The notes beneath the pieces were generated by a model. The model saw nothing but the letters and a program-made list of their open reading frames with translations, had not been told where the DNA came from and made no database searches. Shown here piece by piece: positions 2,632 to 6,150 of a stretch of DNA of 8,103 nt (positions within the stretch are counted from its first letter, which is position 1; the number at the start of each line of letters is the position of its first letter). The stretch lies in IMG/VR virus record IMGVR_UViG_2695420792_000011, positions 1-8,103 of that record. One strand, given 5' to 3'. This stretch comes from a virus. Lineage: Duplodnaviria > Heunggongvirae > Uroviricota > Caudoviricetes. A program made the translations under genes and the position numbers.

Positions 2632-2984
2632 ATGTTTTCGAAATGGAAGGGTTTCTTCGCGGGAAATGTGTACCGCGAGATCTGAAAGTGAACGAAACAA
2701 ATGCTGAGTACCTGGTACGTAAATTCGATGCGCTTGAAGCTAAATGTGCGGCACTGGAAAACAAAATAATACCAGTGTCAGCTGAACTGCCACCAGCAAA
2801 TGAAAGTGTTCTGTTATTTGATGCTAACGGAGAAGGCTGGCTAATTGGCTGGCGTTCTCTCTGGTACACCTGGGGACAAAAAGAAACCGGAGAATGGCAG
2901 TGGACATTTCAGGTCGGGGACCTTGAAAACGTCAATATCACTCACTGGGCAGTAATGCCGAAAGCACCGGAGAATAAGAAATGA
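2622..2984 (+). CDS. yfdS: YfdS-like DUF551 protein (120 aa)
   Basis: ATG 2622; overlaps the yfdR stop; C-terminal motif ...ITHWAVMPKAPE is typical of DUF551 (W...THWMPLP-like). Confidence 0.8.
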   Translation: MRMNVFEMEGFLRGKCVPRDLKVNETNAEYLVRKFDALEAKCAALENKIIPVSAELPPANESVLLFDANGEGWLIGWRSLWYTWGQKETGEWQWTFQVGDLENVNITHWAVMPKAPENKK

Positions 2985-3184
2985 GCGTGATAAAAACTCA
3001 TACAGGAATTGTTATCACCCGAGACGGTCCGCAGGTAAAAAAACTGCACCAGACAAAGCGGATGTGGGTCGTCGGAAAAAACGAGTTTTACCACAAAGAA
3101 AACGGACGCCGCCACTTTGCAGAAAATACTCGCCGCCGACTGCTGATCGATACCATCAAGCCTATCGAGGTGAAGCATGTTTAA
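2981..3184 (+). CDS. Small hypothetical phage protein (67 aa), basic
   Basis: ATG 2981 overlaps the yfdS stop (ATGA); its stop TAA 3182-3184 overlaps the next ATG at 3177 (ATGTTTAAA). Coding-like composition. Confidence 0.6.
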   Translation: MSVIKTHTGIVITRDGPQVKKLHQTKRMWVVGKNEFYHKENGRRHFAENTRRRLLIDTIKPIEVKHV

Positions 3185-3415
3185 ACAGAACGAAAAATCT
3201 ATCGCTCAAATTGCTGAGTATATCCCGCGTGCGTGCCGGGGTATGCAGTTGCAGGAAGCCAAAGCACGCCTGGAGAAAAAATTGCGCTCTATATCGATGA
3301 CGGCTGTGATGCTGCCGTTCTTAACGCGGCGTTCGCGCCAGCTCTTAACAGTCATACGCGAGAGTCTTTTTTTTCGTGCATCGCTGCGCAGATCCGTAAA
3401 GGAGGCAACCAGTGA
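3177..3415 (+). pseudogene. Small phage gene whose reading frame appears to switch from frame 0 (start 3177) to frame 2 (stop 3413-3415); candidate frameshift at the A6 run 3276-3281
   Basis: The ATG at 3177 is translationally coupled to the upstream stop. The frame-2 stop TGA 3413-3415 overlaps the GTG start of the next gene (GTGA). Frame 2 has the better codon usage after about 3284 (IALYIDDGCDAAVLNAAFAPALNSHTRESFFSCIAAQIRKGGNQ), while frame 0 there uses rare ATA/AGA/CGG/TTA codons. Both frames are open across 3233-3415. Confidence 0.4.
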
Positions 3416-3810
3416 GCAAGATTGACTATCAGGCACTGCGTGAGGCGGCGGAACGTGCAATTCAAGCAATGGAACGCCTGTTAATGTTGCCAGCTGCTGA
3501 TGATTTGTTAAGTGAACAGGAACTTAAAGATTACGGTGTGGATATTGATGTGCTCAACGCCTTCAAATTTCTGACCGGACCAGAAACCGTGCTGGCGCTG
3601 CTGGATGAACTAGAAGCTAAAAACAAACGCATTACAGAACTGGAAGCGAGGGAAGTTCAATTACCGACTCGCTACGACCTTCGATATGGGCACCCAATAA
3701 ATGCTGATAAGCGACATGTCATGATACCTAAAGAAAATGGCAGTTGGCTTTGCCTGATTGACTTAGAACACGCACTACGCGTCGCTGGCATTCGCATCAA
3801 AGGAGAGTGA
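3412..3810 (+). CDS. Ead/Ea22-like phage early protein (132 aa), GTG start
   Basis: GTG 3412 preceded by AGGAGG (about 3400-3405); product MSKIDYQALREAAERAIQAMERL...ETVLALLDELEAKNKRITELEAR has the coiled-coil central segment typical of Ead/Ea22-like proteins. Family call is from recollection. Confidence 0.6.
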   Translation: MSKIDYQALREAAERAIQAMERLLMLPAADDLLSEQELKDYGVDIDVLNAFKFLTGPETVLALLDELEAKNKRITELEAREVQLPTRYDLRYGHPINADKRHVMIPKENGSWLCLIDLEHALRVAGIRIKGE

Positions 3811-3811
3811 T

Positions 3812-4012
3812 ATGGCAACTTTGACAAAAAAGGAACAGGCATGGTTGAGCGAATTACAGAACGTTCTTGATCGCTGCCCGTCACCGAAAAAAATTGGTTT
3901 TTACACCATTGGCGATAAAAGCATTTACCTGTATGACCTACGCCGCATGGATGAAATCATGGAGGCTCTTGATGATCGTTCGTCAATGGGATTGGTGTGT
4001 TGCTGTCCATGA
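3812..4012 (+). CDS. Small hypothetical phage protein (66 aa)
   Basis: ATG 3812 lies 1 nt after the upstream stop with GGAG just upstream; coding-like composition; the C-terminus ...GLVCCCP is unusual. Confidence 0.5.
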   Translation: MATLTKKEQAWLSELQNVLDRCPSPKKIGFYTIGDKSIYLYDLRRMDEIMEALDDRSSMGLVCCCP

Positions 4013-4076
4013 TATGAATGCCGGATTTGAAGAAAAGATTTTGTTCCCCTCGTCAGTTGAAAGCACTGCGGGTTAA
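3972..4076 (+). CDS. Candidate small overlapping ORF (34 aa) MIVRQWDWCVAVHDMNAGFEEKILFPSSVESTAG
   Basis: ATG 3972 with GGAGG at 3961-3965 (6-nt spacing); frame 0 is open to TAA 4074-4076 just before the SD of the next gene. Could instead be the tail of a frameshifted 3812 gene. Confidence 0.25.
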   Translation: MIVRQWDWCVAVHDMNAGFEEKILFPSSVESTAG

Positions 4077-5561: not shown

Positions 5562-5588
5562 AACCCGTATATGTACGGGTTATTTTTC
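5562..5588. terminator. Hairpin aacccgta-tatg-tacgggtt followed by atttttc; intrinsic terminator between convergent genes
   Basis: 8-bp perfect stem 5562-5569/5574-5581, 4-nt loop, T-run 5583-5587 on the plus strand. The minus-strand stop codon (5580-5582) lies inside the right arm. Confidence 0.6.
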
Positions 5589-6128
5589 TTTATCACTATC
5601 TTTTCTTGATTTGAACAATCCACTAACAACGAAACCAACCAAACCAACAATACTAATTGTACTTGTACCTAGTAATGCAACGATCGCTTCAACTGGAGGC
5701 TTTCCTTCATGTGCAATAAGAAACGATGTAAACATTGCGACAACGAATAAGCACCAACACGACATAAACCAAACCGTGAATGAGGCCATTTTTGTCCGAA
5801 GCTCATTGTCTATTTCTTTACCAGTTGCGTCAGCTATCTTATCCCGTACTTGTGATTTGAGCATATCAAGCTGAGCTTGAAGACTGTCCATTCTGTTCTG
5901 CTGCATAAACTCATGCAATGCACCAGTATTAGAACCAAACTCTTCTGCCTCCAGAATAGCTTTATTTTCTGAAGAAGAATCATCGTCGCTCTCATGATTA
6001 GACGGCTCAAATGCAGATTTAAAAACCTGTTCTTGACTGTCAGTAGAGTTTAAGGATGCTTCAGAGCGACCATTTTCAACACCTGCGGCCGCTCCGATAA
6101 GTTTATAGATATCTGAATTGTGAGACAT
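5580..6128 (-). CDS. 182-aa membrane protein: acidic disordered N-terminus, predicted coiled-coil, two C-terminal TM helices; candidate toxin/effector (PanT-like) partner of the upstream DUF4065 protein
   Basis: ATG 6128-6126 lies 22 nt downstream of the stop of the 6151-6624 gene. Hydrophobic segments MASFTVWFMSCWCLFVVAMFTSFLIA and IVALLGTSTISIVGLVGFVVSGLF (about 5613-5786) are followed by a basic tail KSRKDSDKEK. AT-rich codon usage. Confidence 0.7.
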   Translation of the reverse strand: MSHNSDIYKLIGAAAGVENGRSEASLNSTDSQEQVFKSAFEPSNHESDDDSSSENKAILEAEEFGSNTGALHEFMQQNRMDSLQAQLDMLKSQVRDKIADATGKEIDNELRTKMASFTVWFMSCWCLFVVAMFTSFLIAHEGKPPVEAIVALLGTSTISIVGLVGFVVSGLFKSRKDSDKEK

Positions 6129-6150
6129 GTCATCCCTGAATATTACTTTT

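Follow-up and report, generated by a model that had tools for sequence, protein, structure and literature searches.

A conserved small prophage gene of the phrog_1344 family, split between two reading frames by a probable one-nucleotide deletion in an adenine run

How does a small phage gene come to start in one reading frame and stop in another? The stretch of DNA analyzed here (the window; 8,103 nucleotides) corresponds at 100% identity to positions 3-8105 of the Escherichia coli draft contig CYEH01000029.1 (GCA_001284685.2), and at 3177-3415 it holds a locus whose start codon is joined to the upstream gene in frame 0 and whose apparent stop codon is joined to the downstream gene in frame 2. 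A first-pass annotation, which had only the letters and their open reading frames (ORFs) to work from, proposed that one gene of about 79 codons has been interrupted at a run of six adenines (A6) by a one-nucleotide indel, either a frameshift or a sequencing error. Comparison with orthologs, which carry a single 79-amino acid frame, bears out the disrupted gene, and the question becomes whether the missing nucleotide is missing from the isolate and whether the two frames are still joined during expression.

The layout of the locus, all of it on the plus strand, is compact. The ATG at 3177-3179 lies inside the 3′ end of a 67-amino acid ORF (2981-3184, stop TAA 3182-3184), as the first-pass annotation had described, with an overlap of 8 nt, ATGTTTAA. 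This upstream ORF matches the phrog_1226 profile, and its 204-nt gene is also annotated in phages mEp460 and 1720a-02 and in E. coli UPEC129. Direct reading places a Shine-Dalgarno-like GAGGTG at 3167-3172, 4 nt 5′ of the ATG. Codons 1-35 (MFKQ...RLEKK; 3177-3281) are identical to those of orthologs and end in the A6 tract, whose position at 3276-3281 is correct as first reported. Codons 36-79 (IALYIDDGC...KGGNQ) follow in frame 2, with the TGA at 3413-3415 (3281-3415 in all), and A 3281 is the base that would be read twice in the event of a -1 slip. The TGA does overlap the GTG start (3412-3414) of an Ead/Ea22-like gene, in a GTGA junction that, with the AGGAGG Shine-Dalgarno at 3400-3405 (3400-3415 together), is common to the orthologs. 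The Ead/Ea22-like gene itself (3412-3810, 132 amino acids; Pfam PF13935, E = 8.7e-22) is coupled to the ancestral stop of the target gene.

In its present state, the ORF that opens at the ATG continues to 3425 and encodes 82 amino acids (CTY12632.1), comprising 35 native and 47 out-of-frame residues, and its stop (TGA, 3423-3425) lies 8 nt beyond the last base of the downstream start codon. The frame-2 ORF extends from a GTG at 3233 to the TGA at 3413-3415. The ORF list confirms that both frames are open over 3233-3415. The pattern at 3177-3415 is more than chance, as the profile matches given below show. The second homopolymer of the region, a run of eight thymines (T8), had been placed two nucleotides too early, at 3365-3372; it occupies 3367-3374, where it has the consensus length, and T6, T7 and T9 forms occur in a few relatives.

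Alignment to related loci had been suggested as the way to learn whether the intact gene carries seven adenines (A7), and it does: the extra A is present at 97 of 100 related loci. A 240-nt A7 gene encoding 79 amino acids, with ...EAKARLEKKIALYIDDGCD... across the run, is found in phages mEp460 and 1720a-02 and in the E. coli strains UPEC129, YD786 and GF4, and STEC409 has the same 240-nt, 79-amino acid gene with matching start and stop junctions. In the alignment, A7 versus A6 is the only length difference between the window and its orthologs. The closest complete-genome alleles, those of YD786 and E423, are separated from the window by a single base, the missing A, and the protein obtained by restoring it is identical to one recorded on at least 1000 public contigs.

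The family profile leads to the same place. The product predicted after one added A matches the 79-position phrog_1344 profile end to end (E = 3.7e-53). The unrepaired sequence gives no single-frame end-to-end match; instead the match is split, with frame 0 covering positions 1-36 and frame 2 positions 34-79, which sets the frame change exactly where the A run encodes Lys-Lys-Ile. Because the match is split and becomes whole only with the added A, we conclude that the window holds a disrupted phrog_1344 member. The neighborhood is also that of the family, with the phrog_1226 67-amino acid gene 5′, the Ead/Ea22-like gene 3′ and an overlap at both the start and the stop.

The disruption falls in front of the most conserved part of the protein. 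In a set of 41 homologs from Escherichia, Klebsiella, Salmonella and Raoultella, conservation extends over residues 1-66 and the tail (67-79) is variable, and I36, Y39, D42, F53, A56 and L57, all of them downstream of the run, are invariant. The length of the A run in distant homologs was inferred from protein sequences; the locus search from the family alignment gave close relatives only. The 79-amino acid frame has a pN/pS of 0.26 over 28 intact haplotypes (0.23 upstream of the run and 0.28 downstream), compared with 0.9-2.0 for the other two frames (0.9-1.7 downstream of the run), and it is the only one under purifying selection. The repaired protein has no match in sequence searches of Pfam, NCBIfam and the PDB. 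An AlphaFold2 model of the 79 residues has four helices and is confident (pLDDT 87), and the phrog_1344 product is accordingly predicted to be a small four-helix protein; Foldseek finds nothing significant for the model in the PDB (best E = 1.6) and only uncharacterized phage proteins in BFVD (E = 0.15).

The surroundings give the gene its context. The order of genes is yfdP, yfdQ, yfdR, a DUF551-like gene, the 67-amino acid gene, the target, the Ea22-like gene, a small gene, a DUF551 gene, a 3′-5′ exonuclease gene and a PrtN-like gene, a cluster of early (non-structural) genes of a lambdoid prophage, mEp460-like or CPS-53-like, which adjoins a DUF2713 gene and a fragment of dusA. No known RNA was found when the whole window was scanned against Rfam. 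At the other end, positions 1-345 are up to 100% identical to an internal segment of a ‘prophage tail fiber N-terminal domain’ gene, and this fragment joins the region 5′ of yfdP directly at about 345, where a CI-like repressor gene of the XRE or LexA family is found in relatives. The fragment forms the very beginning of the source contig, and it reflects either a genuine rearrangement or deletion within the prophage or an artifact of the contig end.

A second frameshifted gene lies just downstream of the Ea22-like gene, at 3812-4076 (plus strand). Its intact form, phrog_1714, has 87 amino acids (e.g. WP_000224220.1); here an extra G in 3988-3990 (GGG, where 12 of 12 relatives have GG) splits it into ORFs at 3812-4012 (66 amino acids, CTY12671.1) and 3867-4076 (69 amino acids), which match positions 1-63 and 58-87 of the 87-position profile. 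From this private frameshift and the tail-fiber fragment at about 345, it follows that the prophage is degraded; the second frameshift and the rearrangement both fit prophage decay. We had also considered that loss of the repressor drove selection to inactivate these genes, and dropped the idea because a promoter scan of 300-1200 found nothing.

Several other features of the window deserve mention in their own right. On the minus strand, a Panacea/SocA-domain antitoxin-like gene (6151-6639; Pfam PF13274; NCBIfam SocA_antitoxin at 96.8 bits, below the 190-bit cut-off) is directly followed by a hypothetical gene for 182 amino acids with a hydrophobic C-terminus (5580-6128), and the pair (5580-6639) looks like a putative toxin-antitoxin pair at the prophage end by the dusA fragment. 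The DUF2713 gene (7396-8103, minus strand) is split into ORFs of 235 and 84 amino acids, which we take to be the yjbM/yjbL arrangement of E. coli K-12; the gene is labeled ‘frameshifted’ in STEC409 and GF4 and is intact, with 338 amino acids, in YD786. Finally, positions 2080-2082, just 5′ of the yfdR GTG at 2083, read AAA here and AA in 40 of 82 relatives, a common 1-nt length polymorphism that may affect the annotated yfdR start, given that the annotation in relatives has 178 amino acids and not 182.

Based on the alignment, the profile matches and the decayed setting, we propose the following course of events. The sequence at 3177-3415 is a single conserved 79-amino acid gene of the early, non-structural cluster found in lambdoid and P1-like enterobacterial prophages. 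The isolate would then have lost one A of the A7 run, most likely by replication slippage, within a prophage that was already decaying. Translation from the ATG at 3177 is expected to leave the native frame after Lys35, to add 47 unrelated residues and to end at 3423-3425, which would destroy the most conserved part of the protein and leave a frameshifted pseudogene allele. Since the A6 product exchanges the conserved core for unrelated sequence, the 82-amino acid protein is most likely non-functional. A frameshifted pseudogene is recognized by just such a difference, a one-base indel at a mononucleotide run (A7 to A6) set against intact orthologs under selection, and we consider it probable that the isolate itself carries the deletion.

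The case for a real deletion is drawn chiefly from two observations. The 82-amino acid product has been recorded from both NCBI and Logan, on 3 contigs, and the 66-amino acid product of the second frameshift has been recorded likewise. In addition, 14 of the 15 homopolymers of at least 6 nt in the window, including T8 at 3367-3374 and the A7 runs at 3037-3043 and 3887-3893, have the consensus length of relatives, and the A6 at 3276-3281 is the sole deviant. Taken together, the Logan record of both truncated products and the consensus length of the other runs make a real mutation likelier than an error. The degraded state of the prophage, seen in the tail-fiber fragment, speaks for a real mutation as well.

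The most serious alternative is that the isolate truly has A7, and GG at 3988, and that two short runs were miscalled in the draft. We judge this unlikely, though it has real arguments behind it. Over 6182 comparable positions the window has two private 1-bp indels against one private substitution, a ratio that is high for ordinary evolution and that would be expected either from assembly errors or from a mutator lineage. The draft contig starts within a repeated tail-fiber gene, many odd indel variants of the phrog_1344 protein occur in Logan only, and other A6 records, discussed below, have the appearance of errors. Against a miscall stand the presence of both truncated proteins in Logan and the correct length of the longer runs (T8 and two A7), which are all as in relatives. 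Moreover, the second indel adds a base to a GG dinucleotide, and homopolymer-length errors are not typically of this kind; inherited A6 alleles demonstrably exist. A literature search on the assembly and protein accessions found nothing.

How rare are such alleles, and what is their history? Complete E. coli genomes were screened with a 44-nt query able to seed on A6 only, and A6 was present in 3 of the 506 that hold the gene (~0.6%); in PGAP annotation it is labeled ‘frameshifted’ in each of the three. A6 was also found in 1 of 89 phage records, in none of 109 IMG/VR contigs and on two metagenome contigs. About 99% of related E. coli prophages have the gene in its intact form. The A6 alleles fall on several haplotypes, namely the window’s own, an SW070917-like one, one that is 90%-diverged, one from a P1-like phage and the clade of protein P0008, and A6 arose several times. 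The P0008 clade has 8 contigs, which come from a number of unrelated Logan (SRA) runs and from two NCBI assemblies; it also includes strain 48 and Z1323MEC0001, and the flanks within it differ by up to 1.8%. Because A6 is shared across these diverged flanks, it must have been inherited, so that real A6 alleles exist; the P0008-clade allele, which is distinct from that of the window, is clearly inherited in at least 8 isolates.

Other records call for more caution. Phage vB_EcoM-813R1 combines A6 with T6, strain 48 combines A6 with T9, and SW070917 has a second ‘frameshifted’ gene beside its A6 allele; several of the database A6 records look like long-read homopolymer compression. The frequent on/off variation in tract length that marks phase-variable (contingency) genes is not seen here, given that A6 is present in ~0.6% (3 of 506). 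Other runs of 7-8 nt in the region show comparable low-level length variation, and the A run is absent in some homologs.

The public records also hold variants of the gene in which the other homopolymer has changed. The T8 tract is length-variable, and T-run indel alleles (P0075, P0077, P0085 and P0096) swap the last 13 residues, replacing the poorly conserved C-terminus to give products of 82-96 amino acids; one such cluster has 61 member sequences. Double indels that compensate each other are found as well, A6+T6 (net -3) and A6+T9 (net 0), at L130:987-1223 (vB_EcoM-813R1) and L119:2921-3160 and in P0144-P0152 and P0158. These alleles encode 77-79-amino acid proteins in which the middle 30 residues are out of frame, with one Klebsiella cluster of 19 sequences, and they could be either correlated long-read errors or real compensated alleles. 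A scan of species-representative genomes gave one A7 match only, on a 1374-nt contig (L004, CAJKAP010000027.1) of a metagenome-assembled genome (MAG) named ‘uncultured Sutterella sp.’, where the prophage gene has A7 and T9; this contig is probably a binning contaminant.

If the deletion is real, the allele might still yield some intact protein. Frame 0 reads GAG-AAA-AAA-TTG across the junction, and a -1 slip of tRNA-Lys would continue as ATT-GCG-CTC, the exact wild-type 79-amino acid sequence. Considered as a slippery heptamer of the form X-XXY-YYZ, G-AAA-AAA allows perfect re-pairing in the A site, keeps two of three pairs in the P site and resembles C-AAA-AAA, which when in frame gives 25-60% -1 frameshifting in E. 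coli over-expression, whereas single-tRNA slips on A-AAA give 0.3-1% (PMC1851650). By analogy with these sites, a low-level -1 leak on GAG-AAA-AAA is plausible. That slippage on GAG-AAA-AAA-T reaches a few percent or more, so that the A6 allele would not be null, we find quite unlikely. If it did, the leak would explain why a different A6 allele persists in a diverging prophage clade, and the A7 and T8 tracts would amount to a crude expression dial.

We find it very improbable that the two frames are joined into one protein during expression, whether by -1 ribosomal frameshifting on G-AAA-AAA or by insertion of an A by RNA polymerase, and whether as a programmed event or as an adventitious leak that would leave the allele partly functional. 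The restored sequence, the efficiencies of the related slip sites and the persistence of one A6 allele would all suit it. The two-frame architecture, however, is not conserved in orthologs: the single-frame A7 form makes up about 99% of alleles, A6 being rare and derived. Thus the suggestion that a genuine A6 might serve as a programmed -1 site finds no support, the two-frame state being a rare derived allele. Some homologs even replace Lys34, the first Lys of the run, and so shorten it (‘ATKIALY’). Nor are the usual stimulators in place, since the downstream RNA fold (3282-3370) is no better than that of shuffled sequence (z = -0.55) and the only Shine-Dalgarno-like element, GGAG, lies directly against the run. 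In dnaX the stimulatory Shine-Dalgarno sequence sits ~10-14 nt upstream. As for transcriptional slippage, the run of 6 nt is far shorter than the runs of 9 A or T at which selection against such slippage is typically evident (PMC1088944).

The remaining possibility, that the locus comprises two independent genes, or that the 82-amino acid frame-0 ORF or a 60-amino acid protein from the GTG at 3233 is the true product, is extremely remote, for although both ORFs are open and the source record annotates the longer as a protein (CTY12632.1), no ortholog keeps these ORFs or conserves the 82-amino acid frame (3177-3425) as such, no annotated ortholog uses the GTG counterpart as its start, that GTG has no Shine-Dalgarno sequence before it, and the frame-0 tail has no family match and lies in a frame where pN/pS downstream of the run is as high as given above for the non-79-amino acid frames.

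For annotation, the preferred reading of a frameshifted pseudogene has simple consequences. CTY12632.1 and several other database entries present as an 82-amino acid ‘protein’ what is a frameshift artifact, for which the proper label is phrog_1344 pseudogene, and CTY12671.1 (66 amino acids) needs the same relabeling. The 82-amino acid protein also falls into one 90% cluster with Ea22-like proteins of 205-239 amino acids, which suggested a fusion of the two; we rejected it, the apparent link being a mis-called 239-amino acid ORF that reads the alternative frame. In some E. coli records, P0004 (239 amino acids) and P0012 (224 amino acids), the Ea22-like gene has been given an N-terminal extension in the alternative frame of the phrog_1344 gene (MPPFLTRRSHQLLTVIRESLFF...), and this mis-call probably explains why the artifact clusters with Ea22-like proteins. 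The case illustrates cleanly how a 1-nt indel is exposed when the coupled start and stop of a gene lie in different frames, and it shows that the rare homopolymer variants on public record are a mixture of real inherited alleles and long-read errors. In itself, the locus is a routine frameshifted pseudogene of a small conserved prophage gene, broken at the very run that the first-pass annotation had named, and it has little significance outside annotation.

It is useful, lastly, to set the locus beside systems that are already described. It shares with the C-AAA-AAA of pDEST17 attB1 and the A-AAA slip of IS1 insAB′ an in-frame AAA Lys pair after a non-A base, at which a -1 shift would restore the frame; unlike those sites, it has no conserved two-frame architecture and no stimulator, and the values for pDEST17 come from T7 over-expression (PMC1851650). 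With the 9A/9T slippage genes (IS elements, Thermus dnaX and Shigella mxiE) it has in common a homopolymer at a two-frame junction, but its run has only 6 nt and its orthologs are single-frame (PMC1088944). The phrog_1344 genes for mEp460 gp30 (YP_007112104.1), 1720a-02 AGR48390.1 and E. coli WP_000476211.1 and WP_000476215.1 are 96-99.6% identical to the window in DNA, with the same phrog_1226 and Ead/Ea22-like neighbors, overlapping start and GTGA junction; they have A7 and 79 amino acids in one frame, whereas the window has A6 and is split. Parallels are also found in the RefSeq pseudogenes ACVF33_RS19780 (SW070917), WHU19_RS13940 (Z1323MEC0001) and IM34_RS13350 (strain 48), which carry the window’s A7-to-A6 change in the same gene and at the same site. 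They differ from it in haplotype and in prophage, and strain 48 in having T9 as well, and because they lie on different haplotypes and in different prophages we regard them as independent events. The record of the window calls its 82-amino acid ORF a protein, whereas these three RefSeq loci call theirs a pseudogene.
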